Below are positions 22,190-41,241 of a stretch of 64,000 nucleotides of DNA, piece by piece. Location: NCBI GenBank assembly GCA_963422375.2, contig OY729428.2:2560001-2624000 (forward strand), read 5' to 3'. This DNA comes from Bryobacterales bacterium (GTDB taxonomy: Bacteria > Acidobacteriota > Terriglobia > Bryobacterales > UBA6623). The notes under the pieces were generated by a model. That model did not search any database, was not told where the DNA came from, and was given only the letters and a program-made list of their open reading frames with translations. Position 1 is the stretch's first letter. The number at the start of each line of letters is the position of its first letter. Made by a program: the position numbers and the translations under genes.

Positions 22190-23192
22190 CCTGATTACCC
22201 ACGAGACTCAGCCAAGGTTAGGAGGCGGTAAGGCCTGGGCGGGGTGCGCACGGAGGCGTGGAGCAGGCGGGGGGCCAGCGCCTCCGGATCGTAGCGGCGG
22301 TTGAAGCGGTAGCGGAACTCGGCGAGGTACCGCGGCAGGTGCTTGCCGTCGAGCGCATGGCAGGCTCCCGCCAGGGACTGCTTGACGTGCGCCAGCATCG
22401 TGCTGACCCGGACGTTGACCCGGACGAAGCGGGAATCCCCGCAGCTCCGCTGCCCGCCTCCGGTGACGGTCGGCACGTGCTCGCAGCCGGCGCCGGCCAC
22501 GCCCCGCAAGCAGGCCGGGCCGTCGGAATGCACCTCCGTGCCGGGCTGCAGGTGCCGCCCGGCCCACGCTGCCAGCGTCTTCTTGCGCAAGCCCGCCACG
22601 CTGCTCAGGCGCATCCTGTCCGGCTGGCCGGCGGCGCTGACCTGCACGGCGGCGACGAACGGCGTCTTGCCCGCCGCTCCGCTCCCCGCCCCGGTAGGCG
22701 TCGTCCACCTGCACGATGCCGCCCAGAGGCACGCGCTCGTCGCGCTCCTTCATCACTTGCAAGAGCTTGTGCTTCATCTTCCAAGCCGTGTTCCGGCTCA
22801 CGCCCGGCTGCCGCGCCAGTTCCAGCGACGAAACGCCGTGCTGGCCCTGCGTCAGCAGGTGGAGCGCCAGCAACCGGACGGTCAGCGGCAGCTGGGTGGC
22901 GGCGAAGATCGTGCCGGCGACCAGGGAGGTCCGGCGGTGGCAGGCGTGGCACTGCCAGAGCTTGCGGGAGCGGATGCGGCAGTGCCGCCGGGAGCCGCAC
23001 TCCGGGCAGCGGGCGTTGAAGACGGCCTGCTCGCATGGCCCCTCGCTGCCGTAGCGCTGCAGGAACTTGCCCGGGCTGAGTCCCTTCTGCATTGCACGCG
23101 ATTGCGTTTCATCTGCTAGCCCCTTTCCTGTCAGAGATTTCCGACGTCCTTCAGTATAGCATATCCTCGGCTGACGTTCGTTGGTAATCAGG
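22190..23192 (-). mobile_element. IS1595-family element, type B, copy 1 (transposase frameshifted)
   Basis: IR CCTGATTACC/GGTAATCAGG; CPEC..CHAC, VQVDDAY, SDG, HLPRYLAEFRYRFNRR in different frames; paralog at 62791-63844; no flanking DR. Confidence 0.9.
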
Positions 23193-24941
23193 ATCTTCGT
23201 TGAGGAACCGCCCGTGAGGACCGCTCAGGAGATCCAGCTCACCCTTGGCCGGACTGCAATCGAGGATATCGATCCCGACGTCCGTTCCCGCGACGATATC
23301 CCGGCCATCTTGCTAGGAATACAATCCATCTATCGCACCGAGGAGTTGCGGGACAGGGTTTTCGGACTGCTCGAGAGCCGTATCCTCGGCCTCGGCGAGA
23401 GTAGCGGGAACGGCGGGAACGGAAGCGATCCTTCCGCAGGCGAGTCCGGCAGGATCAACCCTGCCCTCGGTCGTCCCGGCATGCAGCTGTGGAACATTCT
23501 CGTCCCGGGCCTGCTCAAGCAGGGATTGAATTGCGACTGCGACCGCGTGACGGAGCTGGCGAACAAGCACGCGGACGTCCGGCGCTTCCTCGGTCTGAAC
23601 GCGACGCTCGACGAGCGGGTCTTCAGCTACCGGACAGTCAACCGGAATCCGAAGCTTCTCACGCCCGGCCTCCTCGCGGAAATCAATCAGCTGGCCGTGC
23701 GGGAAGGGCACGCGCTGGCGGAGTGCGAGGAAGGCGAGCCGCTGAAGGCGCGGCGCGACTCGTTCGCGGTGGAAACGAACGTGCATTGCCCGACGGACGT
23801 GAGTCTCCTATGGGACGCGTTGCGCTGCCTGATTCGCTCTATTGCGCCGCTGTGCAAGGGGCGCGGCATCGCCGGCTGGCGGCAGAGCGCGCGGCTGCCG
23901 AAGACGCTGAAGCAGGAATTCAACCGGGTGCGGCAGGCGAAGAGGAGGAAAGCCAACCCGGAGAGGGTGCGGTCGTACCTGGAGGCGGCCCTGGAGATAG
24001 CGCGGCGGGCGGAGGGTGCGCTGGCGGCCCTGGCGCGGGCCGGGGAAGACGAGGGAACCTTGGGAGCGGCAAGGAGTGACCTCGGGTGCGTGCAGCTCCT
24101 GGCGGACCCGGTGGAGCGGCGCGTGCTGCGGGGGGAGAAGATCCCGCACGAGGGGAAAGTGTTCTCGATCTTCGAGGAACACACGCGCTGGTGCGTGCAA
24201 GGAAAAGCGGGGGTGCCGGTGGAGCCGGGCGTGCCGGTATGCATCGTGGAAAGCGAGCACCGCTTCGTGATGAATCACGAAGTGACGTGGAAGGGCAGCG
24301 ACGCGGACGTGGCGGTGGGAATCGTCGAGGGGGCGCAGGGGCTGTACGCGGGGCTGTCGAGCTGCAGCTTCGACAAGGGCTTTCACAGCCCGGCGAACCG
24401 GACGCGCTTGGCGGATACTGCTGTCGTGCCACGCGATGCCGCGGAAGGGGAGGCGGTCGAAGGCGGCGAAGGAGACGGAAGGCGCGCCCGAATTCGCGGC
24501 AGCGAGGCAGGCGCACCCGGCCGTGGAGTCCGCGATCAACAATCTCGAGTGCCGCGGTCCGGACGGGGTGACGGACCGGGGAGCGGAGGGATTCGAGCGG
24601 ATGATCGGGCTGGCGGTCCTGGCGGCGAACGTGCATCGAGTGGGCCGGATCGTGCGCGACAGAGAGCGCGACAGAGAGAGGGAGCGTCTCAAGACGGGAC
24701 CCTTGCCGCTGGCTGCATAGGCAGTCGGCAGCGATCTGAATTGCCCTGAATTGAAATCTTGAAGAGACGAGGTTCAGGAACAGTGTACAACTAGAACAGA
24801 ACTAACTGTATCCTCACAATGAAAATGGAATATGAGGCAATGAGTTCGGGTAATTGGCGCAGCCTGTTTCTTCCATAGCTATCATTTGGTGGGGATCTAT
24901 TAGCTAGAATCCCCAAAATATCAGGGTTTTGTCACAAGCAC
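23193..24941 (+). mobile_element. ISNCY (ISDol1-like) element, left end apparently lost; transposase 23214-24720 frameshifted
   Basis: RSRDDIP, DSFAVETNVH.PTD..LLWDA, KVFSIFEEHT, SFDKGFHSP; frameshift near 24420 to HPAVESAINNLE; right IR GGTTTTGTCACAAGCAC ends at 24941. Confidence 0.8.
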
Positions 24942-25279: not shown

Positions 25280-26650
25280 TCAGAACTTGATCGCCATCGC
25301 CAGGAACGAGAACGTGTTCCCGGCCCCTGGCGTGTTGGCCTTCAGGAACGGTCCCGGAAACATGTACCCGATGCCGCCGCTGAGCCCGATCGCGCCGGTC
25401 AAAGGCGTCGAGAACGTCAGGTTGATCTCGTCACCGACCTTCTTGTCCGCCACCCCGTCTGCAGGCGGCGACACGGTCAAGCGACCCCCGACGTTGTACA
25501 GCGCGTCGCGTGCGCTCACGAGCCAGAACGAATGGAAGTCGACTTGCAGCCGCAACTTCTCGTGCGGCTTGAACGCGCTTCCCAGGCGAAGGTTCTTGAT
25601 GTTGCGCCAGCCCACCAGATCGTTGTAGCCGTACCAGCGGTGCGCCGTGGGGTAGACGTCCACGAAGCCGCCGACCTCGCCATCGTTCGGATCGTCGTCG
25701 CCCGAGCCGAAGTTGTACTCCGCGTACAAGCGCGGCTGCCAGTCCGAGTCGAACTCGTAGCCGAGTTCGGTGTAGTAGGCCCAAGCGCGGATCGCCGCGC
25801 CGGCCAGGTTCCCGCGCTGCGCGACCAAGGCGACGTTGTAGTCCCACGGCCCGAGCCCGTCGCCCCAGATCCTCGTCCCGGTGGTGTAGCGATCCATGTC
25901 GCCGCGCATCTGCAGCTCATTGGCTACCGAAGGCGTTGTCTGCCACAGCACATAGGGCTCGATGGTCGAGCGCGGGATGACATTCCCAATCGCGGCATAG
26001 ATCCCGTGCAGGTTGTTACCTGCAGCGGACTGGTTGACGCGCCGTTCCGGATCCATCTGAACGACCGAGGCCGAAAACACATCGACCCGGACATTCTTCG
26101 CCCGCAACTCCAGCCTCACGGCATCGAACACTCGCGAGACATTGGACCAATCGAGAGCACCGACCAAGCGCTCGTCGCCGTACTTCAGCAGCTGCCGCCC
26201 GACCGTGACAGCCGCCCGGGACTTGGCGGAACCCATCCGGACATAGGCCTGGCGCACGTCGAAACGATCCTCGAACGCACCCAGTCGCGGGCCCTCGCGA
26301 AGGCCCGGCGCGAGCGAATCCTGGCCTTGAAAGTTGAACTCGAACCACGAAGCGGGCGTGATTCCGATATCCACGCGGGTGCGAACCAACGTGTAACCGT
26401 CGTCGCTACCCTCTTGGTAGCCCAAGCTCTGGCGACCCTCAAAGCGCGTGCGGAACTCGCCTCCCAGCGACAGCCAGCTCGGCATCTTGGTTGAATCGGC
26501 GGTCGGTGGCGATCCGCTCCTTGGCGGATCGGCAGCGCTCGGATCCTGGCCCTGCGCCTGAAGCGCCGCGACAGCGAGGACGGCGGCCATCGCTAGCGAT
26601 CCTGAGCGGCGAACCGCACCTGCTACGACTCTCTTTGTGGGCATAGTCAT
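25280..26650 (-). CDS. Alginate-export-family outer-membrane beta-barrel (putative nitrate/nitrite porin)
   Basis: Signal peptide, GGEFRTRFE, VGRQLLKYGDERLVGALDWSN..FDA, GSGDDDP, C-terminal Phe; last gene of the nitrate operon. Start uncertain. Confidence 0.82.
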   Translation of the reverse strand: MTMPTKRVVAGAVRRSGSLAMAAVLAVAALQAQGQDPSAADPPRSGSPPTADSTKMPSWLSLGGEFRTRFEGRQSLGYQEGSDDGYTLVRTRVDIGITPASWFEFNFQGQDSLAPGLREGPRLGAFEDRFDVRQAYVRMGSAKSRAAVTVGRQLLKYGDERLVGALDWSNVSRVFDAVRLELRAKNVRVDVFSASVVQMDPERRVNQSAAGNNLHGIYAAIGNVIPRSTIEPYVLWQTTPSVANELQMRGDMDRYTTGTRIWGDGLGPWDYNVALVAQRGNLAGAAIRAWAYYTELGYEFDSDWQPRLYAEYNFGSGDDDPNDGEVGGFVDVYPTAHRWYGYNDLVGWRNIKNLRLGSAFKPHEKLRLQVDFHSFWLVSARDALYNVGGRLTVSPPADGVADKKVGDEINLTFSTPLTGAIGLSGGIGYMFPGPFLKANTPGAGNTFSFLAMAIKF

Positions 26651-26678: not shown

Positions 26679-28016
26679 TCACGCGGGTTCCGGCTGGGTC
26701 CGTGCTCGTGCCAGGCGGGCCTTGGTTTCGCGCGCAACGGCCGACTCGTCCGCCTCCGAGAATCGGACGGAGAATGCCAAGAAGGACACGACCGTGACGG
26801 CCGCTCCGAGAATGAGCAGCGCCTCCGTCCAGGCTAGGCTGTCGGCCCTGAACAGGAAGCCCGCGGCCACGGCTCCGGCGTTGCCCCCGGCACCGACGAC
26901 GCCCGCTACGGCCCCCAGCGCCCTCTTGTTGATGAACGGCACGACCGAGTACGTGGCTCCCTCCGACATCTGCACGCACAGGCTAAACAGGATCAGCGTC
27001 GCGATCGCCACCGGCAGGACAGTCTGCTGGGAGAACAGCATCAGAGCCAGCCCCTCGACGAAAAGAATCGTCGCAAGGAACCAGACGCGACCGCGCAGGC
27101 CCCAGCGCAGGCCCCACCGATCACCCACCGCTCCCCCGAGAGTCCGAGCGAATACGTTCATCAGCCCGAACAGGCCTGCCACGATGCCCGCGGTCGTGAG
27201 ACCGAGGCCGAAGTAGTCGTGGAAGTACAGGGCGGCGATATTGTTGATCGTCAGCTCGACGCCGAAGCAGGCACCGTAGACTACGAACAGGGCCCACACC
27301 CGCCGATCCGCCAGCGCCTTGAGAAAGGTGCCTTCCACCGTCCTCGAACTCGCGAGGGCCCCTTCGCGCCTCAGTCCTTCGTAGCTGCCGTCGGGGGAAT
27401 CCTCCGTGTACCGCCAGTACAGGACCGACATCGCCAGCAGGGCGAGTCCCGGCGCGACCATCGCCAGGCGCCATCCGACGGCCTCGTCGGCAACGAACGC
27501 CAGCGCCCCGGCGAAGACCAGCGGCATCGCCATCTGCGTTACGCCGCCGCCTAGGTTGCCCCAGCCGGCGGTGGTCGCGTTCGCCGTCCCTACGGTATTG
27601 GGCGCGAACATCACCGACGTGTGGTACTGCGTGATCACGAAGGAGGCGCCGATCGCGCCGATCGCCAGCCGGAAGAGCAGGAACGTCTCGTAGCTGTTCG
27701 CTAGGCCTACCGTGATCACCGGGATCGAGCCGAGCGCCAGCAGCCACGTGTAGGCCTTGCGCGGGCCGATCTTGTCGCACAGCCAGCCGACCGCCAGCCG
27801 GGCCAGCACCGTGATCGCGACCGAGGCGATGATGGTGTTCCCGACCTGCTCCTTCGTCAGGCCGAGGTCCTCGCGGACCACGGCCATGAGCGGGGCGATG
27901 CCGAACCAGCCGAAGAAGCATAGAAAGAACGCGACCCATGTCATGTGGAACGCCCGCATCGGAATCGTGCTGAAGCTGAAAAGGCGGATCTCGGTCGCTT
28001 TGCCGTTGAAGTCCAT
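26679..28016 (-). CDS. narK: NarK/NRT2-family nitrate/nitrite MFS transporter
   Basis: MRAFHMTW, nitrate signature ANATTAGWGNLGGG, FARTLGG, GVVGAGGNAG. Confidence 0.93.
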   Translation of the reverse strand: MDFNGKATEIRLFSFSTIPMRAFHMTWVAFFLCFFGWFGIAPLMAVVREDLGLTKEQVGNTIIASVAITVLARLAVGWLCDKIGPRKAYTWLLALGSIPVITVGLANSYETFLLFRLAIGAIGASFVITQYHTSVMFAPNTVGTANATTAGWGNLGGGVTQMAMPLVFAGALAFVADEAVGWRLAMVAPGLALLAMSVLYWRYTEDSPDGSYEGLRREGALASSRTVEGTFLKALADRRVWALFVVYGACFGVELTINNIAALYFHDYFGLGLTTAGIVAGLFGLMNVFARTLGGAVGDRWGLRWGLRGRVWFLATILFVEGLALMLFSQQTVLPVAIATLILFSLCVQMSEGATYSVVPFINKRALGAVAGVVGAGGNAGAVAAGFLFRADSLAWTEALLILGAAVTVVSFLAFSVRFSEADESAVARETKARLARARTQPEPA

Positions 28017-28156: not shown

Positions 28157-30388
28157 CTAGCGAGCGGCGCTGCGAGGGCCGCTCCTCTCGACGCGGACCG
28201 CTGCCTGCTTGTAGTTCGGCTCCCGCGAGATCGGGTCGAACGCGCTCTGGGTCAGCCGGTTCGAGTTCTTCTCCTCGTAGTGGAAGGGCATGAAGACCTG
28301 CCCGGGGGCCACGATCTCCGTAATCCGCAGTTCGACGTTGTCGATGCGGCCGCGCGGCGACGCGACCGTGACGAGGTCGTGCGGTCGCAGGCCCAGCTGC
28401 CTGGCGTCGCGCGGGTTCATCTCCAGCCACGCCGACGGCGCCATGCGCTCGAGGATCTTGACTTCCTTGGTCTTGGTGCGGGTGTGCCAGTGCTCCACCG
28501 TGCGCCCGGTGTTGAAGACGAACGGATACGCCTCGGTCGGCTGCTCCGGGTACGGCTCCCACTCGACCGCGAACAGCTTGGCGCGCCGGTCCGGCGACTC
28601 GTACCTCCCGTCCCCGTAGAGCCGCCTGGTCGCCGGACGGCCTCCGCCGGCCTCCGCTGCGTCGGCTGCGTCGGCTGCGTCGGCATGCGCGAAAGGCCAC
28701 TGGATCCCGTGATAGCGGTCCAGCAGCGCGTAGCTGAGGCCGGAATAGTCGCACAGGCGGCCCTTGGAGACCTTCCGCCATTCGTCGAAGGCGTCCTCGA
28801 CACCGGCCCAGCCCGGATAGAGCCTGTCGCGCACGCCGAGTCGCTCGGCGACTGCCATGCAGATGTCGAAGTCAGCGCGCGCCTCACCGGGCGGGTCGAC
28901 GGCCTTGTTCACCTTGCTGACGCGCCGCTCCGAATTCGTGTAGGTGCCGGTCTTCTCCCCCCAGATGGCCGCCGGCAGAACCAAGTCGGCGATTTCCGTC
29001 GTCGGCGTCGGATGGAAGCCGTCCTGCACCGCGAGGAATTCGAGGTTACGGAGGCCTTGGCGCAGCACGCCGATGTTCGGGAACGAGACGAGCGGATTCG
29101 TGGCGATGACCCAGAGAGCCTTGACCCGGCCCTTCACGCAGTCCTCGACGATGTCCGGGTAGGCGTGGCCGCGCGACCGAGGCAGTTCGCCGGGGTCGAC
29201 GTTCCAGAGCCGCGCCAGCTCGGCCCGGTCCGCCTCGCTCGCGAAATCCCGGTAGCCCGGCATCGACGCGGTGAACCCCGTCTCCCGCGTGCCCATCGCG
29301 TTGCACTGGCCGGTAATCGAGAAGGGCGATGCCCCGGGCTTGCCCACGTTGCCTGTCAGCAAGGCCAGATTGTTGATTGCGTTGACCGTCTCGGTCCCCT
29401 TCGTCGAGTGGTTGACGCCCATCGTCCATGCCAGCAGCGGCGCCTTGGCGCGTCCGTAGAGCAGCGCGGCGCGGTAGACCTGCTCTTCCCCGAGCCCGGT
29501 CGCGGCCGCGACGCGTTCCGGGGTGTATCGCCGGAGATGCCGCTCGAGCTCCTCGTATCCGGAGGTATGGGCGTCGATGTAGTCCCGGGCGATCAGGCCC
29601 GCCCGGATCAGGACGTGCGCCATCCCGTTGAGCAGGGCGATGTCCGAGCGCGGCCTGAGGGGCAAGTACAGGTCGGCCATGCGGGCGGTCTTGCTGACGC
29701 GCGGGTCGGCCACGACCACCGTCTTGTCCCGGTTCTGTTCCAAGCGGTAGCAGAGGATCGGGTGGTTGTCGGCGATGTTCGCCCCGATCAGGAACACCGC
29801 GTCCGCCTGCTCGAAGTCGTCGTAAGCCCCGGGCGGGCCGTCGCTGCCGAACGAGCGCTTGTACCCGGACACGGCGCTGGCCATGCAGAGGGTGGTGTTG
29901 CCGTCGTAGTTGGTCGTGCCGAACCCGAGCTGCACGAGCTTGCCCAGCGCGTAGAACTCCTCGGTTACGAGCTGGCCCGTGCTGATCACGCCCAGCGCCT
30001 GCGGGCCGTGCTCCGACTGCACCCGGCGGAACTCGCGGACTAGTGCGTCCAAGGCGTCGTCCCATCCGACCCGCTCCAGACGCCCCTTGCGGTTCCTCAG
30101 CAGCGGGTGCCGGGCGCGACTGGCGGCATGGAGGGTTTCGTGCTCCGCCAGGCCCTTGGGGCAGAGCTTGCCCAGATTCACCGGGTGGGCCTCGTTGCCG
30201 CGCACCGCGACGGCTCTGCCGTCGCGGACGCCGATCAGCATGCCGCAGCCGACCGAGCAGTAGCCACAGGTGGTGGGCACCCAGCGTTCGGGGATCTTCG
30301 CCGCGGAAACGAAGCCGTGCCGGGGGTCGCGGCCGTAGGCGTACTCTTCACTGCGGGTGTCGAAGCCGAGGATTCGCTTGAGATTCAT
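28157..30388 (-). CDS. Mo-bisPGD oxidoreductase, Nas/NarB-type nitrate reductase catalytic subunit
   Basis: TTCGYCSVGCG..LCPKG 4Fe-4S, STGQLVTEEFY, DGNTTLCMASAV, MGVNHS, TGQCNAMG, EPNYKQ; no Tat signal; ATG 30388 overlaps the upstream stop. Confidence 0.9.
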   Translation of the reverse strand: MNLKRILGFDTRSEEYAYGRDPRHGFVSAAKIPERWVPTTCGYCSVGCGMLIGVRDGRAVAVRGNEAHPVNLGKLCPKGLAEHETLHAASRARHPLLRNRKGRLERVGWDDALDALVREFRRVQSEHGPQALGVISTGQLVTEEFYALGKLVQLGFGTTNYDGNTTLCMASAVSGYKRSFGSDGPPGAYDDFEQADAVFLIGANIADNHPILCYRLEQNRDKTVVVADPRVSKTARMADLYLPLRPRSDIALLNGMAHVLIRAGLIARDYIDAHTSGYEELERHLRRYTPERVAAATGLGEEQVYRAALLYGRAKAPLLAWTMGVNHSTKGTETVNAINNLALLTGNVGKPGASPFSITGQCNAMGTRETGFTASMPGYRDFASEADRAELARLWNVDPGELPRSRGHAYPDIVEDCVKGRVKALWVIATNPLVSFPNIGVLRQGLRNLEFLAVQDGFHPTPTTEIADLVLPAAIWGEKTGTYTNSERRVSKVNKAVDPPGEARADFDICMAVAERLGVRDRLYPGWAGVEDAFDEWRKVSKGRLCDYSGLSYALLDRYHGIQWPFAHADAADAADAAEAGGGRPATRRLYGDGRYESPDRRAKLFAVEWEPYPEQPTEAYPFVFNTGRTVEHWHTRTKTKEVKILERMAPSAWLEMNPRDARQLGLRPHDLVTVASPRGRIDNVELRITEIVAPGQVFMPFHYEEKNSNRLTQSAFDPISREPNYKQAAVRVERSGPRSAAR

Positions 30389-31908
30389 GCGGCGGCCCTC
30401 CCCCCGAGGAACGGCATGGCCATGTTCTTGGGCACAACGCTGACGAAGAACAAGTAGCGCCCGAGCAGCGCGCCAGCGGCCGCGAGGCCGAAGCCCGCCG
30501 CGGCGTAGCCGAGAGCGGGCAGCACCGCCCCTCCGGCGGCGAGCAGGCCCAGCCGGGCCAGCAGCAGCCGCGCGAGCGGGCCCGACAGCAGCCGCGCGGT
30601 GGCCTGTCTCTCGTGCTCGTCGGACCGCACCAGTCCGAGGAAGCGCCAGATCTCCGCGAGGACGTGGGCGACCGCGGCCGCGGAGGCGAGCAGGGCCGCC
30701 TCGTGGGGGCCGCCCAAGGCCGCGAGGAGGAGCGGTCCCAGCGTGCAGCCGGTCAGGAAGAAGTCGGCGATCGTGTGCGGGCTGTTCCAAGCCGGGCGCC
30801 CGGGCACAAGATAGATGCGCGAGGTCGCGTACATGGCGATCAGCCCGACCGCCGTGGCGCAGCCGCCGACAGCGGCCGCGCTCCCCGGGAGTAGCGCCAG
30901 CAGACCCGCGTACGCCCCGGCCAGCAGGCCGAAGGCCGATAGAGCGACGATCTCCCGGCTGAGCCAGGAGGTCCGGACGTTCCGGACGGCGAGCGCCGCG
31001 AAGGCCGGCCGCCCGAGGTGGAGCGGGGACGCGGCGAACGCGGCGACGCCGAGCGCCAAGGAGACGAACGCGGCGGCTTCGAGGACGGCCGACCCGCCGA
31101 ACAGGCTCAGAAGCCAGGTCGTTGCGAAGCCGGCGACCGACAGTTGCGTGAGCACGGTCATCAGCACGAGCGAGTAGTGGGGCTTCGCTGGCCGCAGCCG
31201 GTGAAAGTCAGCCTCGCCGGCATCGAGCGGCATCTGGTCGGGCAGCGTCACGCGGGTCGTCGAGATGGTGTCGTCGGCGCTGGGCAGCCCCGGGGCGTTC
31301 GCTTCGCCGCGGTACTTGGCCCGCCACTCCCCGGCGTCCACGATTTCGATCGCAAGCGCCTCCGCCGGGCACGCGCTCACGCAGGCAGGCGCGTTCCCCT
31401 CCTCGAGCCGGCCGTGGCACATGTCGCACTTGCCGACCACGCCGCGCTCCGCGTTGTACGTCGGCACGCTGTAGGGGCAGTTCCAGATGCAGTACTCGCA
31501 GCCGATGCAGGCATCGGCGTTGTGATGCACGATGCCGGTCCGCGGGTCCTTCGTGTACGCGTCGGTGGGGCAGCCAGTCATGCAGGAGGGATCCAGGCAG
31601 TGATTGCAGGCCATCGACAGATGCAGGCTGTGGGTCTGCGGGAAGACGCCGCCCTCGATCTCGCCGACGCGCCGCCAGCTCACGTCGGGCGGGTTGTTGT
31701 TCTGCTCGGCGCAGGCCACCTCGCAGCACTTGCATCCCACGCACTTGGACATGTCGAAGTGGAACCGGTACTGCTGGCCGTCCTCGAGCGGGATGTCGGG
31801 CACCAAGGGGGAACGCCGGTCGAGCCCGCGATCGGCGCGGGACGGAGAAGCGTTCAGGATGGTGAAAGGGTTCCCGACGGACTGGTCGGTGTTGGCCGTA
31901 GCCTGCAT
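30385..31908 (-). CDS. Fused DmsB-like 4x[4Fe-4S] ferredoxin and DmsC-like membrane anchor
   Basis: CVGCKCCEVAC, CNHCLDPSCMTGCP, CIGCEYCIWNCP, CDMC..ACVSACP, then about 8 TM helices with LHLGRP, SWLSREI, GRYLFF. Confidence 0.9.
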   Translation of the reverse strand: MQATANTDQSVGNPFTILNASPSRADRGLDRRSPLVPDIPLEDGQQYRFHFDMSKCVGCKCCEVACAEQNNNPPDVSWRRVGEIEGGVFPQTHSLHLSMACNHCLDPSCMTGCPTDAYTKDPRTGIVHHNADACIGCEYCIWNCPYSVPTYNAERGVVGKCDMCHGRLEEGNAPACVSACPAEALAIEIVDAGEWRAKYRGEANAPGLPSADDTISTTRVTLPDQMPLDAGEADFHRLRPAKPHYSLVLMTVLTQLSVAGFATTWLLSLFGGSAVLEAAAFVSLALGVAAFAASPLHLGRPAFAALAVRNVRTSWLSREIVALSAFGLLAGAYAGLLALLPGSAAAVGGCATAVGLIAMYATSRIYLVPGRPAWNSPHTIADFFLTGCTLGPLLLAALGGPHEAALLASAAAVAHVLAEIWRFLGLVRSDEHERQATARLLSGPLARLLLARLGLLAAGGAVLPALGYAAAGFGLAAAGALLGRYLFFVSVVPKNMAMPFLGGRAAA

Positions 31909-32380
31909 GGACGTGCTCGACTCCTCTCCGGATTGCGCGGTGCGCACGGCTGACTAGCCGCCGGCGCGCTCCCGCGTTGCGGAAGCGCGCCGGGCGTTGC
32001 GCACGCTCGTCGTGGTGGTGGATTCCCCGCCCGGCTCCGCAGTGAGCCGGGCGATCAGCTGATCGCAAATCTACGGGGACTTGGCCGCCGGGACCGCACG
32101 GTCTCCGGGGCTGGCGGGCGGGAGGCCGGTCGCGACCTCTCCGCCTGCTCTAACGCTAGCACGGCCCGAGAGGCCGTGCGAAGCAAGAATTTCTTATCGG
32201 AGCCATAACCCCGCTGGGACGTCCGAAAGGGCTCCTACACTGGAATCGTACCGAGCGCCAAGCTCCTCGCCGAGCAAGGCCCGCGCCCGTTCAGCCCAGC
32301 GTAGATGCTGAACCGGTCACTTGGCGCCACAAGCGCCCGTGCCGGACCCGGGCGATTTGCATCGCGAGGAGGCTATTTGG

Positions 32381-35300
32381 ATGGCGGGTATTCCGAAGAC
32401 CGCCGTTGTGATCGGCAACGGCCCGGTCGGGCACCGGTTCTGCGAGAAGCTAGTCGAGTTCGACACCCGCGGCGCGTACCGCATCGTCACCTTCTGCGAG
32501 GAGCCGCGGCCCGCGTACGATCGGGTGCGCCTGACCTCGTATTTCGCGCACAGGGATCCCGGCAAGCTCGCCGTCGGCCGGGAGGGCTGGTACCGGGAGC
32601 ACGGAATCGAGCTCCGCGTGGGCGACCGCGCCACGCAAATCGACCGCTCGCGCAGGGTGGTCGTGTCCGCGGCCGGGAGCGAGATTCCATATGACCGGGT
32701 CGTGCTGGCAACCGGCTCGCGACCGTTCGTGCCGCCGATCAACGGTGTCGACAAGGCCGGCGTCTTCGCCTACCGCACGATCGAGGACCTGGACGCGATC
32801 ATCGACTTCGCCCGCTCGGCGCGCACTTGCGCCGTGATCGGAGGGGGCCTGCTCGGACTGGAAGCCGCCAAAGCAGCGCACGACCTCGGACTCGAGACGC
32901 ACGTCGTGGAGTTCGCGCCGCGCCTTATGCCGCGGCAGCTCGACGACGAGGGGTCGCGCCTGCTCGTCGGCAAGATCGAGGACCTCGGAGTGCACGTGCA
33001 TCTGGCCAAGGCCACGCGGCAGATCCGAGGCAACGGCAGGGTCCGCGGCCTGTCCTTCGCGGACGGGGGCAGCCTAGAGGTCGACATGGTCATCGTCTCG
33101 GCCGGCATCCGCCCGCGGGACGAGCTAGCGCGTACTTGCGGCCTGGCCGTCGCGGAACGCGGCGGCGTGGCCGTCGACGACCGCCTGCAGACATCCGCTC
33201 CGGAGATCTACGCCATCGGTGAGGCAGCCTCGCACCGCGGCACGGTCTACGGTCTGATCGCTCCGGGCTGGAGGATGGCGGAGGTCGCGGCGGGGCGGCT
33301 GGCGGGGCGGGATCTCCGGTTCGAAGGAGCGGACCTGGCGGCGAAGCTCAAGCTGATGGGGGTGGATGTCGCCAGCTTCGGCAGCCACGAGACCCCGCGC
33401 GAGGACGTCGCGCCCTTCGTGGTCAAGGATCCATTCGCGGGGACGTACAAGAAGCTGCTGTTTAGCGGCGACGGCACGAGGCTGATCGGGGGCGTGCTGG
33501 TGGGCGACGCGTCCGAATACGCCAGCCTGGCCGCCCTGGCCAGCGCGGGCAAGCGGCTCGAATCCACTCCGGCGGAACTCGCCGGCGTCGGCGCGGCGGG
33601 CGGCCCCGCGACCCTCGGGGACAGCGCCCCGGTATGCAGCTGCAACGGCGTGTCGAAGGCGGCGCTGCTCGCGGCGATTCGCGACCGAGGGCTGACGACC
33701 GTGGGAGCGGTCAAGGAACGCACCGCGGCCGGCACGGGCTGCGGCGGCTGCCTGCCTCTGGTAACCAGCTTGCTGAACTCCGAGCTGGAGGCCTCGGGCC
33801 GGACGGTGAAGCGCTACGTGTGCGAGCACTTCCCGCACACCCGCCAGGACCTTTTCGAGATCGTCAAGATCAAGGGAATCCGGACCTTCGAGGAGCTGCT
33901 CCGGGATCACGGCCGCGGCCACGGCTGCGAAACCTGCAAGCCGGTCGCGACATCGATCTTCGCCTCGCTCTGGAACGAGAGCATCACCGACCCGAGCCAT
34001 CACACGCTGCAGGACACCAACGACCGATTCCTAGCCAACATGCAGCGGGGCGGACTGTACAGCGTGGTGCCCCGCGTCCCGGGCGGGGAGATCACGCCCG
34101 ACAAGCTGATCGCGCTCGGCTCGGTCGCCAAGAAATACGGCCTGTACACCAAGATCACGGGCGGCCAGCGAGTGGACCTCTTCGGGGCCCAGGTCCAGCA
34201 GCTGCCCAGCATCTGGGAGGAGCTGATCGGCGCCGGTTTCGAGAGCGGACACGCCTACGGCAAGGCCCTGCGCACGATCAAGAGCTGCGTCGGCACGACT
34301 TGGTGTCGGTACGGCGTGCAGGACTCCGTCGGCTTCGCCGTCCGGATCGAGGAGCGCTACCGGGGCATTCGCGCCCCGCACAAGGTCAAGGGGGCGGTGT
34401 CGGGTTGCGTGCGCGAGTGCGCCGAGGCGCGATCGAAGGACATCGGCCTGATCGCCACGGAGGCCGGCTACGACCTGTACGTCTGCGGCAACGGCGGCGC
34501 GAACCCAAGGCATGCGGAGCTGCTGGCTGACTCCCTGGACGAGGAAACGGCTGTCCGCTACATCGACCGGTTCTTCATGTACTACATCTCGACGGCCGAC
34601 AAGCTAACGCGCACGGCCCGGTGGGTGGAAGGGCTTGAAGGGGGCATCGAGCGGATCAGGGATGTCGTAGTTCGCGACAAGCTCGGCATTTGCGACGAGC
34701 TGGAGAGGCGCATGCAGTTCCTCGTCGACAGCTACCGCTGCGAGTGGATGGACGTGGTGAAGGACCCCGCGCGGAGGAGGCTCTTCCGCCAGTTCGTCAA
34801 TAGCGACGAGAACGAGGCCGGCATTGAGATCGTGCGCGAGCGCGGACAGAGCAGGCCCGCCGACTGGCCGAAGGACTCCGTGAGCCTGGACCGGATCAAG
34901 CTGCCGGACGGGCGGCCGATTCAGGTCGCGCCCCCCGGGAAGGCGCAGCGGAAGCCCCGCAAGCTGCAATGGGTCCGCGTGGGACGGGTCGCGGACTTCC
35001 CGCCCGACGGCGGGGCGGCCGTGAAGTACGGCGACACGCAGATCGCCGTGTTCAACCTGACCAGGCAAGGGACGTGGCGCGCGTGCCAGAACATGTGCCC
35101 GCACATGAACGCCTTCGTGCTGGCGCGAGGGATCACGGGCAGCACCGAGACTGCTGCGAAGGTCACCTGCCCGCTGCACAAGAAGCCGTTCTCGCTCGCG
35201 ACCGGCGAGTGCCTGTCGGGCGAGCCGTACGCCCTGAAGGTGTTCCCCGTACGAGTCGCGAGCGACGCAATCTACCTGCTGCTGCCTCCCGCCAGGCAGC

Positions 35301-35383
35301 TTGACGCCGTCCTCGGCACGAACCTGCACGCGGTCCAAGCGTGCGACGCCGCGGGGGCGCACGTGCGCGCATCCCTCGCGTGA
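32381..35383 (+). CDS. nirB: NAD(P)H nitrite reductase, NirB fused to C-terminal NirD Rieske domain
   Basis: PAYDRVRL, LATGS, VIGGGLLGLEAA, CSCN, GCGGC, KSCVGTTWCRYG, VSGCVRECAEA; C-terminal CPH..CPLH Rieske; GAGGAGG SD. Confidence 0.95.
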   Translation: MAGIPKTAVVIGNGPVGHRFCEKLVEFDTRGAYRIVTFCEEPRPAYDRVRLTSYFAHRDPGKLAVGREGWYREHGIELRVGDRATQIDRSRRVVVSAAGSEIPYDRVVLATGSRPFVPPINGVDKAGVFAYRTIEDLDAIIDFARSARTCAVIGGGLLGLEAAKAAHDLGLETHVVEFAPRLMPRQLDDEGSRLLVGKIEDLGVHVHLAKATRQIRGNGRVRGLSFADGGSLEVDMVIVSAGIRPRDELARTCGLAVAERGGVAVDDRLQTSAPEIYAIGEAASHRGTVYGLIAPGWRMAEVAAGRLAGRDLRFEGADLAAKLKLMGVDVASFGSHETPREDVAPFVVKDPFAGTYKKLLFSGDGTRLIGGVLVGDASEYASLAALASAGKRLESTPAELAGVGAAGGPATLGDSAPVCSCNGVSKAALLAAIRDRGLTTVGAVKERTAAGTGCGGCLPLVTSLLNSELEASGRTVKRYVCEHFPHTRQDLFEIVKIKGIRTFEELLRDHGRGHGCETCKPVATSIFASLWNESITDPSHHTLQDTNDRFLANMQRGGLYSVVPRVPGGEITPDKLIALGSVAKKYGLYTKITGGQRVDLFGAQVQQLPSIWEELIGAGFESGHAYGKALRTIKSCVGTTWCRYGVQDSVGFAVRIEERYRGIRAPHKVKGAVSGCVRECAEARSKDIGLIATEAGYDLYVCGNGGANPRHAELLADSLDEETAVRYIDRFFMYYISTADKLTRTARWVEGLEGGIERIRDVVVRDKLGICDELERRMQFLVDSYRCEWMDVVKDPARRRLFRQFVNSDENEAGIEIVRERGQSRPADWPKDSVSLDRIKLPDGRPIQVAPPGKAQRKPRKLQWVRVGRVADFPPDGGAAVKYGDTQIAVFNLTRQGTWRACQNMCPHMNAFVLARGITGSTETAAKVTCPLHKKPFSLATGECLSGEPYALKVFPVRVASDAIYLLLPPARQLDAVLGTNLHAVQACDAAGAHVRASLA

Positions 35384-35442
35384 GAGTGGCGGATGCACTG
35401 GGAGACGATGGCTGGAAGGGAGCGGGAGTAGAGGTGAGAGGA

Positions 35443-36222
35443 ATGGACGGAGCCGCAGTGATCGATCCAACCGACATGAGAACGGAAGCCGACCGGCAAT
35501 TCGACGCATGGTCGGACCCCGACCGAGGCGACCATCTCGACTTCCTGCATCGGATCAGCGGGCGTCTCGCCGTGGCCGATCCGCTGCACGAGGTGCTTGA
35601 TCAGATCGTCGACTTCCTGAACGTCGTGGTCGGCGCCGACTCGTGCTTCATCTACGTGCTCGAGGGCAAGGCACTTGTCCTGCGAGCGTCAAAGAACCCC
35701 CATCCCGAGTCAGTCGACAACCTCCGCATTCCCGTGGGCGAAGGCATCACGGGGTGGGTAGCGCAGCACCGCGAGACCGTGGCGATTTCCCGCGGAGCAA
35801 CGCGCGATGCCCGCTTCCGGAGCTTCAGCCAGCTTCCGGAGGATCGATTCGAAGCGTTCCTGTCCGTGCCGATTCTGGCCGGAGGGCGCCTGATCGGAGT
35901 GCTGAACCTGCAGCACCGCGGCAGCCACGCCCACTCGCAGCAGGAGGTCAAGCTCGTGTCCACGATCGGTCATCTGGTCGGGGCGGAGGTCGAGAGGGCC
36001 AGGCTGGAGTCCGAGGTCACGAAGCTGACGGTCCAGCTGGAAACACGCAAGGTCACCGAACGAGCCAAGGGGATCCTGCAACGCGACCTAGGCTTGACCG
36101 AGGAGCAGGCCTACCTCAAGCTGCAGCAGGAAAGCCGCCGGCGCCGAATCCCGATGAAGCAGGTGGCCGAGGCCGTAGTTCTCTCGGACGACCTGCGGCG
36201 GGCCGGCGACGCGAAGCCTTGA
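35443..36222 (+). CDS. GAF-ANTAR RNA-binding regulator
   Basis: GAF domain (GEGITGWVA, FLSVPI..LIGVLN) and ANTAR domain (LETRKVTERAKGIL..EEQAYLKLQQESRRRRIPMKQVAEAV). Start may be 35476. Confidence 0.9.
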   Translation: MDGAAVIDPTDMRTEADRQFDAWSDPDRGDHLDFLHRISGRLAVADPLHEVLDQIVDFLNVVVGADSCFIYVLEGKALVLRASKNPHPESVDNLRIPVGEGITGWVAQHRETVAISRGATRDARFRSFSQLPEDRFEAFLSVPILAGGRLIGVLNLQHRGSHAHSQQEVKLVSTIGHLVGAEVERARLESEVTKLTVQLETRKVTERAKGILQRDLGLTEEQAYLKLQQESRRRRIPMKQVAEAVVLSDDLRRAGDAKP

Positions 36223-37015: not shown

Positions 37016-37445
37016 AATCCCAGCCGCAGGCAGGGATTCCGCCCAGCCCCGCTCGCCAAACTGGCAACGCCGCCCCTCGGCGACGGGTCATGGTGCGGCT
37101 CGGGCCCCGCGCGTTCGGCCGAAGCCCGCGCCATATTGAGAGCCCACGCGAGCCGCTCTCAACGCGGAGCATCGCTGGGTTGCGGATCGCAGCCGCGTCC
37201 TCCGCCGGGCCGCCTGCACGTCCAACCGACATCGAGCCGGCCCGAACCCAACTTGCCTTCCCCCGCACGCCAGTTCATCACCTTCCTGTCCCCCGTGCTG
37301 TATGGTATGTACGGATGGCCGGGCAGTCGCGGCGTATCCGCCGGCATGGACGATGCCGCATGACATGCAGGCTGCACGACGGGCGATCCTGCAACATCGC
37401 GTCCGTGCCGCCTAGGCAGTGGATCGGGATGAACAGCGACATGAA

Positions 37446-38699
37446 ATGAAAGTGGACAGACGCTTCGCATTGAAGGGGATCGGGGGCGCGCTCACCCTGC
37501 CCCTCCTGGAATCCGCCGTGCCAGCCGCCCAGCCGCCACCTACGCGGTTCCTGGTCGTGGGCAACCCCTTGGGAATGCATCCGGAGCACTTTTTCCCGGC
37601 GGGTTACGGGAAGGGTGTCACGCTACCCGCAACCCTTCGATCTCTCGACTGGCTTCGGGATCGACTCACGATTCTGTCGCACACGGACCACGGCATGAAC
37701 AACGGCCACGGCCGTGAAATCTCGTTCCTGAACGGCATCCTGCCGGAGACCAGCTCGGCCTTCCCCGAAAAGAACGTCTCGGTCGACCAGTTGATGGCCC
37801 GTCGTACGTACGGCAGCGTGCGGTTTCCATCGGTTCATGCGGCTCTGGGAAACGGGATTCGGATGAGCTGGAATGCCAACGGCGTCGATCTCAAGCCGTT
37901 CACCGACCCGCACAGGCTCTTCGATCACCTATTCCTCAATCTGACCGCCGAGCAGAAGACGGCCCGAAGGGAGTTGATCGCACGCAACGGCAGCATACTT
38001 GACGCAGTGGGAGATCAGCTTGCAAGCTTGCAGCGGCGAGCCGGCAGACGGGATCTGGAGCGTCTGGATCAGTACGCAACCTCCGTCCGTGAGATGGAAG
38101 GGAGCCTCTCGGCCCGCAGCGAGTGGATCGACCGCAATAAGCCGAAATTCGACATTTCGCGGCACTTCGCCGGCTCCGAGACTACCATCGGAAACCAATA
38201 CAACGCGATCTTCGACATGGTCGGGTATGCCTTCGAAACCGACCTGACGCGCGTCGCCACCGTGGCTTTCCCGAACGAGCTGAGCTACACCGACATCGAC
38301 GGAGTGACGCGCGGCTACCACGCTTGCACGCACAACGGCAAGAAAGAGGACGTGATCGCCGAACTGGTAGCGATCGAGTCGTTCCAAGTCGCCCAGCTGT
38401 CTCGTTGCCTGCGCAAGCTCGACGCCGTTCGGGAGCGGAACTCGGACGGCACGCTGCTGGATCACACGATCGTACTGTTTGGCAGCGGCATGGGATACGG
38501 CGGGACGCATTCCAACCGGAACTTGCCGATCCTAGTCGCTGGCGGAGGCTTCCGGCATTTGGGCCACGTCGATGCGAGTGGACGGGACGGCATCAGTATG
38601 CCGCTATGCAACCTCTACGTCACGCTGCTGCAGCGCTTCGGCGTGGAGATGGACAGGTTCAACGTCAGCACCGGATCATTCGAGTTTCGTCATGGGTAG
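37446..38699 (+). CDS. DUF1552-family protein
   Basis: DRRFALKGIGGALTLPLLES, SVDQL, AFETDLTRVAT, LLDHTIVLFGSGMG..HSNRNLPILVAGGGF. Confidence 0.88.
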   Translation: MKVDRRFALKGIGGALTLPLLESAVPAAQPPPTRFLVVGNPLGMHPEHFFPAGYGKGVTLPATLRSLDWLRDRLTILSHTDHGMNNGHGREISFLNGILPETSSAFPEKNVSVDQLMARRTYGSVRFPSVHAALGNGIRMSWNANGVDLKPFTDPHRLFDHLFLNLTAEQKTARRELIARNGSILDAVGDQLASLQRRAGRRDLERLDQYATSVREMEGSLSARSEWIDRNKPKFDISRHFAGSETTIGNQYNAIFDMVGYAFETDLTRVATVAFPNELSYTDIDGVTRGYHACTHNGKKEDVIAELVAIESFQVAQLSRCLRKLDAVRERNSDGTLLDHTIVLFGSGMGYGGTHSNRNLPILVAGGGFRHLGHVDASGRDGISMPLCNLYVTLLQRFGVEMDRFNVSTGSFEFRHG

Positions 38700-41241
38700 C
38701 GCGCGCCGCGCGGCGCTACTGCTTGCCGCGTTCAACACGGTGCTATCGGCTGCCGCCGACGGTGACGGAACGCGTATCCCGCGCCTGCTCGACACACACT
38801 GTGCGAGCTGCCATTCCGGTGCTGAGCCGAGCGGCGGCTTTCGTGTCGTTTCGCTGGCCGGAAGCGCGGACCGAAGCAACGCCGATCTGTGGCGGAAGAG
38901 CCTGGAATACGTGCGAGCCGAATTCATGCCTCCGGCAGATGCAGGGCGGCTGGGGAACGCGGATCGACGCCAATTGATCTCGTTTCTTGAAGCAGGAATG
39001 CGCGGCACGGAGGCTCCAGCCGAAGAGCCAACGAGAGCCGTGCCGCGGCGATTGAACAATCGCGAACTCGCCAACAGCGTCCGCGACGTGCTGATGATCG
39101 AAGACGTCGGAACGCACCAGCCGATGGCCGACCTTCTCGGCGATACGCTGCATGACGGCTTCGATACGGACGGCGACGCCTTGGGGATGAGCCAGTTCCA
39201 CCTAGAACAGTACATCGGAGCGTTCCGGAAGATCGTGGACGCGACGGTCCTGTCTGGCCCGAGGCCGGAGGCGCGTCGCTACATGGTTGCGGCCAGCGAC
39301 TTGCAGATGACAAGCCTGTCGCAGCGGAGGGGACGGGAGAGAGCGAACCGCACGCCTGCGAGTATCGACTTCCTGGACCCGCGGCTGCGCGTATACTTCG
39401 CAAATTTCGAGAGGGCTCCGGCGACGGGCAGGTATCGCATCAGAATCCGAGCCGCGGGGATAGACCGCGACGTTTACGACTCAGAAGCGACAGGCATCTA
39501 CGGCAGCGATCCGATTCGCCTGAGCGTCCACCTCGGGGACCGGATCCGTACCTTTGACCTTCCCGACGGGACCTCGACCGAGATCGGCTTGGACGAGTGG
39601 ATCGCGGCGGGGACGAGACTCGAGCTGTCGTATCCGACGGACGGCTTGCGGCTGCGCGGCAACGGGAACTTCAAGTTCCAGTTCCAGATTGCGCACGATC
39701 ACATCAAGAGGACGGACCCGGAGCTGTTCGCGGCCGTCTTGAAGGACAAGCTGGTCAAGGCTCCGGCGCGAACCGCGCGCAGTCCGCGGCATTGGAGCCA
39801 CTGGACGGAACAGTGGCAAGGTCCGCGGCCGCGCCTGTTCAGCGCCGAGATAGAAGGTCCCCTCTACGAGAGCTGGCCGCCACGGCGGCAGGTCGCCTTG
39901 ATCGGGGCGGAAGCGAGGGTGCAACACGCGGACGCCATCCTTCGCCCGATCGCGGCAAGGGCGTGGCGTCGACGCCCGCGCGGAGAAGAGCTGGACCCGA
40001 TCATCCGCCTGGTACGGTCCAGAGCAGCCGAGGAACCGTCCGCCCGGGCGGACATCGAAGCACTAAAGGAAGGCATCGTTGCGATTCTCGCGTCACCAGC
40101 ATTCCTGCTCGTCAATTCGGACGATGGCACGCCCGCTGACCGCTTCGCGTCCAAGCTCAGCTACTTCCTCCAAGGCACGATTCCGGACGGGCGCATCCAA
40201 GAGGCTGCTCGCAGCGGCGAGCTTGCCACGTTCGAGGCGGTTCGCACCGAAACTCTCCGTCAGTTCGAGCGCTCGGAGGCCGACGAATTCCTGAGGGCGT
40301 TTCCTCATGCGTGGCTGGAACTGGATCGGATTAACTTCATGGCTCCCGATCCTGACCGCTTCCCGCTGTATAGCCGCAAGCGGCTGAGCGAGGACATGGT
40401 AGCCGAGGCGCTGCGGTTTTTTCGGCACGTGGTGGAGAACAACCGTCCTGTCTCCGAGCTGCTCTCGGCGGATTACACGTTCTTGAACGCGGACCTAGCC
40501 AAGGTCTATGGCATCGGTGACGTGCCGCGCGACTCGCAGCTGCGCAAGTACACGTTTGCCGACGGCCGGAGGGGCGGCCTGCTCGGAATGGGAGCTTTTC
40601 TTACCCTGACAGCCGACAGCCTTTCAACCTCGCCTATCCACAGGGCGGTATATGTCATGGAGAAATTTCTAGGGATTCGCCCGGCACCGCCTCCGGCCGA
40701 CGTCGAGATTGCGGAGCCTGATGTCCGCCAGGCGAGGACGATTAAGGAAATTCTCGCTGCTCACACAGCCGATCCGACCTGCGCATCCTGTCACCGGAGC
40801 ATCGATCCCTACGGCTACGCCTTCGAAAATTTCGATCCGATCGGCGCGTGGCGCGACGAATACACGGCGCATATCGCTTCCAAGCCATCCCGCCAATCGT
40901 TGCAGGAGATCGAGAATCAGGATCGTGTGAGAGCCGCTAGAGGATTGCCTCCCGTCGAGAAGCCATGGAACAACGAGCCGATTCCCATCGATGCCGCGTC
41001 CCAGCTCCCCGGCGGGGCCGACTACCTCAATATCGTCGAGTTTCGTAAGCACCTACTTGACGATGAGAACAGAGACCGGTTCGTACGCTGCTTCATCGAA
41101 ATGCTTCTGACCTACGCAAACGGCGGGAAACTCGAAAATCTATCTGACATCGAGACCATTCTGGCTAAGTCCGTGGAGAACGAATATCGGATTATCGACA
41201 CGATCGCCGCCGTGATCGACAGCCCGCTGTTCCGCAACTAA
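38692..41241 (+). CDS. Planctomycete-type cytochrome c / DUF1587-1595-1592-1588-1585 multidomain protein
   Basis: Two CxxCH motifs (both CASCH), RRLNNRE, ASKLSYFL, RRGGLLG, TSPIHR, IDPYGYAFENFDPIGAWR. Confidence 0.88.
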   Translation: MGSARRAALLLAAFNTVLSAAADGDGTRIPRLLDTHCASCHSGAEPSGGFRVVSLAGSADRSNADLWRKSLEYVRAEFMPPADAGRLGNADRRQLISFLEAGMRGTEAPAEEPTRAVPRRLNNRELANSVRDVLMIEDVGTHQPMADLLGDTLHDGFDTDGDALGMSQFHLEQYIGAFRKIVDATVLSGPRPEARRYMVAASDLQMTSLSQRRGRERANRTPASIDFLDPRLRVYFANFERAPATGRYRIRIRAAGIDRDVYDSEATGIYGSDPIRLSVHLGDRIRTFDLPDGTSTEIGLDEWIAAGTRLELSYPTDGLRLRGNGNFKFQFQIAHDHIKRTDPELFAAVLKDKLVKAPARTARSPRHWSHWTEQWQGPRPRLFSAEIEGPLYESWPPRRQVALIGAEARVQHADAILRPIAARAWRRRPRGEELDPIIRLVRSRAAEEPSARADIEALKEGIVAILASPAFLLVNSDDGTPADRFASKLSYFLQGTIPDGRIQEAARSGELATFEAVRTETLRQFERSEADEFLRAFPHAWLELDRINFMAPDPDRFPLYSRKRLSEDMVAEALRFFRHVVENNRPVSELLSADYTFLNADLAKVYGIGDVPRDSQLRKYTFADGRRGGLLGMGAFLTLTADSLSTSPIHRAVYVMEKFLGIRPAPPPADVEIAEPDVRQARTIKEILAAHTADPTCASCHRSIDPYGYAFENFDPIGAWRDEYTAHIASKPSRQSLQEIENQDRVRAARGLPPVEKPWNNEPIPIDAASQLPGGADYLNIVEFRKHLLDDENRDRFVRCFIEMLLTYANGGKLENLSDIETILAKSVENEYRIIDTIAAVIDSPLFRN

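Follow-up and report, generated by a model that had tools for sequence, protein, structure and literature searches.

We describe a pair of overlapping acidobacterial genes whose products probably draw the electrons for nitrate reduction out of the respiratory membrane, not out of soluble donors. The pair lies on the minus strand of a 64,000-nucleotide stretch from a Bryobacterales bacterium (assembly GCA_963422375.2, contig OY729428.2, positions 2,560,001 to 2,624,000), which we call the window and to which all coordinates refer. One gene (28157..30388) encodes a 743-residue catalytic subunit of the molybdenum bis(pyranopterin guanine dinucleotide) (Mo-bisPGD) type with one [4Fe-4S] cluster, FS0. 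The other (30385..31908) encodes a 507-residue protein that fuses a DmsB-like iron-sulfur domain to a DmsC-like membrane anchor. We read the pair as a menaquinol:nitrate oxidoreductase at the cytoplasmic face of the inner membrane, with a probability of about 0.8; this wiring jointly with nitrate assimilation as the main role comes to about 0.6. A sequence-only reading of this DNA had proposed that the quinone pool drives cytoplasmic nitrate reduction here. That proposal is supported by the motifs and tree position of the catalytic subunit, the predicted topology, the quinol-site residues, the strict pairing of the genes and a model of the complex, from which we infer the activity itself.

A nitrate-reductase-type subunit and its fused membrane partner

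The two genes are joined by an ATGA at 30385-30388, read directly in the sequence, which holds the stop of the fusion and the start of the catalytic subunit. The fusion start at 31908 is backed by a conserved purine-rich site upstream, and its single open frame matches two Pfam families in succession, Fer4_11 (residues 96-187) and DmsC (244-402). The ATGA overlap and the joining of four [4Fe-4S] motifs to a DmsC-like anchor in one polypeptide, both described in the sequence-only reading, are thus borne out. A frameshift artefact behind the fusion was ruled out, as full-length fusions occur in 120 listed homologs from several sources.

Conservation was scored on 62 catalytic and 64 fusion sequences, hand-picked from the 120 best matches of each search. 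The four-cluster domain of the fusion (31336..31776, minus strand, residues ~45-191) carries its cysteines in DmsB order, at 56/59/62/66, 101/104/109/113, 134/137/140/144 and 161/164/176/180, and all 16 are invariant (64/64). The iron-sulfur profile of the family scored E. coli DmsB at 145 bits, and NapG and NapH below 5. The anchor (30442..31176, minus strand, residues ~245-489) is predicted to have eight membrane helices, both by hydropathy and in an AlphaFold model (mean predicted local distance difference test score, pLDDT, 79.8; predicted template modeling score 0.80). Foldseek matched the fusion to PsrB (2vpw_B), PsrC (2vpw_C, target TM-score 0.76) and ActC. Fusion residues S294, H297, S314 and E319 align with S62, H65, S82 and E87 of E. 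coli DmsC, which are listed as quinone-site residues in the part of PMC8076601 covered here (its Table 2). The last three are kept in every sequence and S294 in 53 of the 64. R484, also invariant (64/64), aligns with E. coli DmsC Arg271, which the same part of that paper includes in its residue list for a proposed half-channel.

The charges of the anchor loops predict its orientation. Lysine and arginine are split 15:0 between the N-terminal side and the opposite side, compared with 4:8 in E. coli DmsC, 5:12 in Azospirillum DmsC and 5:12 in NrfD. The bias runs in the same direction in all 64 sequences, with means of 16.9 in 109 residues versus 1.1 in 22. By the positive-inside rule, this reversal predicts an inverted anchor: its quinol site would be cytoplasmic, as would the N-terminus of the protein with the iron-sulfur domain. 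Together with the lack of export signals described below, it points to the cytoplasm as the side that the ferredoxin domain faces, a matter on which the sequence-only reading had asked for a topology prediction. The same charge pattern was seen in the SoeC-like protein of locus L104, a label of our own inference, and, over the first five loops, in an unannotated Rhizobium trio that appears to be SoeABC-like. Since hydropathy missed one helix of the SoeC-like control, the control loops were taken from the alignment, first five only. When unfused anchors were scored against the family profile, the SoeC-like protein of L104 ranked top (65.7 bits), followed by others at 61.1, 51.7 and 1.4 bits.

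A second family of DmsB-DmsC fusions was encountered at nine further loci (L083-L087, L089-L091 and L093), downstream of a different molybdoenzyme without a twin-arginine translocation (Tat) signal. This enzyme is ~27% identical to the nitrate-type subunit and has a Cys-Trp motif and a DmsA-like NCBIfam match under the cut-off. The arrangement suggests that the fused inward-facing module may be reused with other molybdoenzymes.

The catalytic subunit consists of Molybdop_Fe4S4, Molybdopterin and Molydop_binding domains and no other in Pfam, with no C-terminal 2Fe-2S or flavoprotein extension found by these models. Its best solved match is monomeric NapA of the D. desulfuricans type (PDB 2jim, E = 3.5e-145). 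The FS0 ligands (Cys41/44/48/76), the lysine between FS0 and the pterin, the molybdenum ligand motif Cys168-Met169, Met323 and Arg368 all align with 2jim and are invariant (62/62). An N-terminal extension of ~33 residues is also conserved in the family. A regular expression for the twin-arginine motif matched none of the 62 catalytic or 64 fusion sequences and all five periplasmic controls, and so the earlier statement that the catalytic subunit has no Tat signal stands.

In two FastTree trees (46 and 76 sequences), the family forms its own clade, with support of 0.998 and 0.999. Both trees place it among Cys-ligated nitrate reductases and outside FdhF, NapA and proteobacterial NasA/NasC; it also falls outside the Klebsiella/Paracoccus/Sinorhizobium and haloarchaeal Nas branches, in trees without a named NarB or B. 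subtilis NasC. The subunit passes no NCBIfam cut-off, those for NasC, haloarchaeal NasA and NapA included: it reached 485 of 1100 bits with NF047855 and 499.5 of 1000 with NF041323, both lineage-narrow Nas models, and 432.7 against a cut-off of 930.55 with the NapA model TIGR01706. Its highest NCBIfam score was for an Fdh-alpha model (544 bits, under the 666 cut-off). Formate dehydrogenase identity was ruled out by the tree and by the motifs, which are Cys-Met and TGQxNAxGxRE in the family and Cys/Sec-His and RGQNNVQG in formate dehydrogenases. The subunit thus groups with nitrate reductases, the outcome on which the sequence-only reading had made its case depend. Its label of "Cys-ligated Nas/NarB-like" holds for the ligand; the Nas assignment is a loose one, given the missed cut-offs and the separate clade. 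Two substitutions near the active site, Thr166 and His327, appear to be marks of the family.

Two sets of relatives deserve mention in their own right. Plasmid records L102, L108, L111 and L112 hold "nitrate reductase" proteins with Cys-Thr as the ligand motif. A small hypothetical gene adjoins each of them, two of these small partners have no Pfam match, and the flanks of the four records contain no nitrate genes. Protein P0247 (929 residues) carries a sister-clade nitrate-reductase-like domain behind an iron-sulfur domain of the succinate dehydrogenase/fumarate reductase type, possibly another link to the membrane.

The sequence-only reading had also proposed modelling the complex. Given the catalytic subunit and fusion residues 14-245, ESMFold2 produced a complex scoring 0.94, compared with 0.03 for the best of three controls. 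Of 157 solved complexes, 116 reach the mark used for this score, as do 2 of 215 mismatched pairs. Runs agreed in at least 71% of contacts, and the pLDDT of the partner was at least 77. In the model, the FS0 loop (74-81) sits on the first cluster motif of the fusion (55-71), as a wire requires, and part of the N-terminal extension of the catalytic subunit (11-31) belongs to the predicted interface.

Pairing, neighborhood and host genome

Relatives of the fusion were found at 484 places in species-representative genomes, and the best 80 loci were fetched and checked for the partner. By record label, most of these belong to Bryobacterales or elsewhere in the Acidobacteriota, and a few to Actinomycetota, Acidimicrobiia, Dormiibacterota or further groups; the Bryobacterales records are 70-77% identical to that of the window. 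The carriers include a cultured one, Acidicapsa dinghuensis (locus L050). The catalytic gene lies directly downstream of the fusion in 79 of the 80 loci, and the exception stops at a contig edge. A start-capable overlap at the fusion stop is present in 77. Among 41 whole genomes drawn from the genus and the order, 23 contain both the family catalytic gene (over 1390 bits) and the fusion, always adjacent, and neither gene ever occurs alone. Four further genomes lack the fusion and carry only more distant genes of the nitrate-reductase-like or Fdh-like kind. Because these genomes are kin, the figure of 23/41 is given as a description, with no statistical test. In the plasmid collection, none of 139 matches covers 80% of the fusion, and no carrier with a name and annotation came from it. 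A phylum-wide search (E ≤ 0.001) had hits in 187 of 201 genomes, but these are for the most part common ferredoxin domains, and we take no count from it; three of its genomes, flagged as unpublished, support no claim here.

In each of the 80 loci, at least one gene encodes a nitrite reductase, a transporter of the nitrate/nitrite type or an ANTAR protein. Nitrite reductases are present in 71 loci (NirB-like in 65-66, NirA-like in 8, some with both), and their type varies while the pair stays constant. Transporters of the major facilitator superfamily (MFS, including NarK), FNT or ATP-binding cassette (ABC) type are also present in 71, with a NarK-like transporter beside the pair in 52 and ABC-type permeases in 3. 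ANTAR genes occur in 28-29. The partner genes of Nap (NapB/C/D/G/H) are not among the neighbor families recurring in at least three loci. Note that the fetched flanks range from 3 to 17.5 kb, and misses in these counts are therefore not absences.

In the window, the pair is followed on the minus strand by a NarK-like nitrate/nitrite MFS transporter (26679..28016; TIGR00886, 290 bits, just missing the cut-off of 311.7) and a porin of the alginate-export family (25280..26650; its start is uncertain, as the open frame reaches 26737). No terminator-like sites were found in the 140- and 28-base gaps between the catalytic gene, transporter and porin; together with the shared gene direction, this is consistent with one operon. 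The operon proposed in the sequence-only reading fits this layout, except that the porin, found beside the pair in 6 of the 80 loci, is a local addition and not a conserved part. As that reading also stated, the cluster is divergent from nirBD: a NirB-NirD fusion, an NADH-dependent siroheme nitrite reductase above its family cut-offs, lies on the plus strand at 32381..35383. It is followed by a GAF-ANTAR RNA-binding regulator (35341..36222, plus strand, start uncertain).

The divergent control region (31909..32380) contains a conserved palindrome, TTAT-N7-ATAA (32194-32208), and a TG-extended -10-like box on the minus strand (~32153-32161); a consensus promoter scan of the region gave no match. 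Short hairpins with six-base loops and G at loop position 4 (G4) lie at ~32066-32083 and 32027-32054 (minus strand) and at 32262-32275 (plus strand). Such hairpins are enriched in the leaders of 20 fusion genes, with 52 against 16.7 ± 4.1 in 200 shuffles of these related sequences, and in nirB leaders, with 31 against 7.5 ± 2.5. Characterized ANTAR targets are tandem six-base-loop hairpins with A1 and G4, according to the part of PMC3369931 covered. As A1 is mostly missing here, ANTAR control of these leaders is only a lead.

The host genome is 96% complete and has three genes of the Mo-bisPGD family, of which only the window's is of the nitrate reductase type; the others are a selenocysteine-type FdhF-like gene and a Tat-bearing QrcB/ActB-like gene. 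It also encodes two MqnA/MqnD-family proteins (futalosine-pathway menaquinone synthesis), complex I, a heme-copper oxidase family protein, MoaA and two ammonium transporters. NrfA was not found above cut-off in this genome.

Several further features were recorded around these loci. In six of them (L050, L062, L067, L068, L075 and L079), a NirA-like siroheme enzyme and a CysJ-like flavoprotein replace NirBD near the pair, and the nearby regulator is of the HemD-GAF-ANTAR type. In the copy of the cluster at L092 (G110:C1), the fusion and catalytic genes appear fragmented, and a protein that joins a NirA-like part to a Rieske domain is encoded next to them. In the window, the porin end of the cluster is bordered by an IS1595-type transposase piece (22208-23092, minus strand) and a transposase-like frame without a Pfam match (23181-24749, plus strand), and a paralog of the porin, 70% identical, lies on contig C1. 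Downstream of the regulator, 37419-41241 (plus strand) holds a planctomycete-cytochrome-associated type of gene pair, with DUF1552 in one gene and DUF1592/1588/1587/1595/1585 in the other. Finally, an FdhF-like gene at 47917-49836 (minus strand) has an in-frame TGA at the metal-ligand position, followed by His, as in selenocysteine-type enzymes, and its frame has no N-terminal [4Fe-4S] part.

Proposed mechanism and alternative explanations

From these observations we infer the following route. Menaquinol would be oxidized near the cytoplasmic surface, at the His/Glu/Ser site of the inverted DmsC-type anchor, and electrons would pass through the fused DmsB domain, with its four [4Fe-4S] clusters, and then FS0 to the Cys-ligated molybdenum. 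There, nitrate imported by NarK would be reduced to nitrite, for conversion to ammonium by NirBD or, in other genomes, by an enzyme of the NirA type. The main role would be to assimilate nitrate, with control of the ANTAR type. Overall, nitrate reduction by this route is probably electroneutral, because the protons of quinol would be released and those for nitrate consumed on the same side, unless the anchor channels protons outward. The gain would be that every dehydrogenase that reduces quinone could supply the electrons, once complex I has done its pumping. The menaquinone couple stands at about -74 mV. The nitrate couple, at +433 mV in the part of PMC10100899 covered, is far above it.

The main rival keeps this wiring and makes its role mainly dissimilatory: a low-oxygen electron sink for the quinone pool, with NirBD clearing nitrite in nitrate ammonification. 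Quinol donors are typical of respiratory enzymes, the host has two ammonium transporter genes, and NarK and NirBD also serve ammonification in enterobacteria. Moreover, two acidobacteria, comparable to this case by gene name, reduce nitrate to nitrite with only "nasA", according to the part of PMC5900883 covered. On the other hand, the nearby ANTAR genes, NirA-type enzymes and ABC-type permeases point to assimilation, the G4 hairpins are enriched in the leaders, and the same-side chemistry would conserve no energy. The context thus favors assimilation, and we regard a mainly dissimilatory role as unlikely, if still the alternative with the most weight. Less likely again is a third energy-conserving quinol:nitrate architecture beside Nar and Nap, in which the inverted, heme-free anchor would send the quinol protons out to the periplasm through its proposed half-channels, and acidobacteria scored as without a respiratory nitrate reductase could use nitrate for respiration or redox balance with a gene annotated as "nasA".

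In another explanation, which we find doubtful, the anchor is a mere tether and the wire is fed by a soluble donor, either ferredoxin or NirB, whose NADH-oxidizing part has this function in certain Nas systems. NirB is indeed near the pair in most loci, and some NrfD-like subunits (ActF) have no bound quinone, as stated in the part of PMC8076601 covered. Yet H297, S314 and E319 of the quinol site are the same in all 64 sequences, and the pair is kept where the nitrite reductase is NirA-type or where the fetched flank has none. Nor does the catalytic subunit carry the C-terminal extension found in proteobacterial NasA.

It is very improbable that the pair uses a substrate other than nitrate or runs in reverse, for example by oxidizing formate or nitrite into the quinone pool, as SoeABC does with sulfite. 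The top NCBIfam score is for the Fdh-alpha model, the topological precedent SoeABC is a dehydrogenase, and Thr166 and His327 are unusual. The Cys-Met and TGQxNAxGxRE motifs, the position outside the FdhF clade and the nitrogen genes in all 80 loci nevertheless speak for nitrate, and nitrite oxidation could not reduce menaquinone because of the two potentials given above. Least credible is a periplasm-facing complex like DmsABC or Nap, exported by an unrecognized signal: nearly all characterized NrfD-family complexes face the periplasm (in the part of PMC8076601 covered) and some nearby tree branches have Tat signals, but neither subunit has a Tat motif, the charge bias is reversed throughout, a folded-cluster domain is fused ahead of helix 1, and an inner-membrane nitrate importer is linked to the pair.

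Menaquinol-driven nitrate assimilation is thus the reading that we prefer, and several points weigh against it. The trees were built with FastTree only and lack the named cyanobacterial NarB and B. subtilis NasC. In the wider tree, its sister group (support 0.99) for the family consists of six unnamed Tat-less proteins, and a neighboring clade includes the Cys-Thr "nitrate reductase" proteins without nitrate genes nearby (four records); tree position alone therefore cannot fix the substrate. Thr166 replaces an Arg of NapA and proteobacterial NasA in 62/62 sequences, with Thr also found in haloarchaeal NasA, and His327 replaces their Gln in 58/62. The pass of the complex model may reflect likeness to similar molybdoenzyme/iron-sulfur pairs already solved. 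The loci counted are the top 80 among 484, with many close kin among them; ANTAR genes are limited to 28-29 of them, and the leader hairpins keep G4 mostly without the A1 of characterized targets.

Relation to known systems and biological meaning

Overall, the pair appears to be a real, conserved and coherent variant of the complex iron-sulfur molybdoenzymes, much like SoeABC, which also faces inward, but operating in the opposite direction and with a nitrate-type catalytic subunit. SoeABC, the sulfite:quinone oxidoreductase of Allochromatium vinosum and Aquifex aeolicus, is described in the part of PMC8076601 covered as an N-side enzyme; its SoeC is expected to sit inverted in the membrane and to have its quinone site on the N side. 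The inverted DmsC-like anchor is thus not new in itself, and the earlier statement that DmsC-type anchors normally serve periplasmic enzymes holds for most of them with SoeABC as an exception. On that partial account, the two systems share a Tat-less molybdoenzyme, a four-cluster subunit and an eight-helix inverted anchor. Unlike SoeABC, the pair has a nitrate-reductase-type catalytic subunit (by motifs and by trees that contain no SoeA), its B and C parts are fused, and electrons would run from quinol to substrate instead of from substrate to quinone.

The other relatives differ in distinct ways. With E. coli DmsABC and Thermus PsrABC, the pair shares the DmsB-like wire, the DmsC quinol-site residues and the PsrB/PsrC folds, but it has no Tat export, a predicted inverted anchor and fused B and C parts, and its Cys-Met nitrate-type subunit is far from DmsA in the tree. 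It resembles NasA, NasC and NarB in being cytoplasmic and Cys-ligated, with FS0 and with nitrite reductase, NarK and ANTAR genes in the cluster, whereas its obligate partner is a membrane protein and not an NADH diaphorase, ferredoxin or flavodoxin. Monomeric Desulfovibrio-type NapA (2jim) is closest in solved sequence, size and ligand motif, and NapA is quinol-fed; the pair differs from it in lacking a Tat signal and recurring Nap partner genes, and its fusion is unlike NapG and NapH. The NarG lineage has an Asp ligand, and its di-heme NarI oxidizes quinol at the periplasmic side and so makes a redox loop. The pair would share with NarGHI the passage of electrons from quinol to nitrate on the cytoplasmic face via a four-cluster wire, but its anchor is predicted to be heme-free with a cytoplasm-side site, and neither a NarG-type subunit nor a heme-b NarI anchor is matched. 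The pair is therefore outside NapA, NarGHI and DmsABC proper, and only loosely a Nas.

In textbook classes, assimilatory nitrate reductases are tied to soluble donors. According to the part of a 2020 phylogeny covered (PMC7331816), the Nas/Nap/Aio/cytoplasmic Fdh clade has no member that associates with a four-cluster subunit or membrane anchor, a statement that the present family contradicts. The part of PMC5900883 covered lists acidobacterial "assimilatory nitrate reductase" genes and describes no membrane partner, and that of PMC8076601 names nitrate once in the text and describes no such nitrate complex. The parts covered of PMC10732223, PMC12769810, PMC10609526 and PMC10100899 do not describe the pair either, nor did our literature search return a description, with most subscription journals and supplements outside its reach (Table S6 of PMC5900883 may list the genes). 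The idea is not wholly new, since the nearest ESM Atlas cluster carries the automatic name "Nitrate reductase (Quinol-dependent), transmembrane subunit", so that annotators had inferred quinol dependence earlier.

The pair is widespread: its fusion gene occurs at 484 places or more, many of them in Acidobacteriota, which abound in soils. If our reading is correct, nitrate assimilation in the acidobacterial carriers would draw on the respiratory quinol pool, and automated "nasA" or "DMSO (dimethyl sulfoxide) reductase" labels would misplace the pair. It would also provide a two-gene system for testing the workings of inverted NrfD-type anchors.

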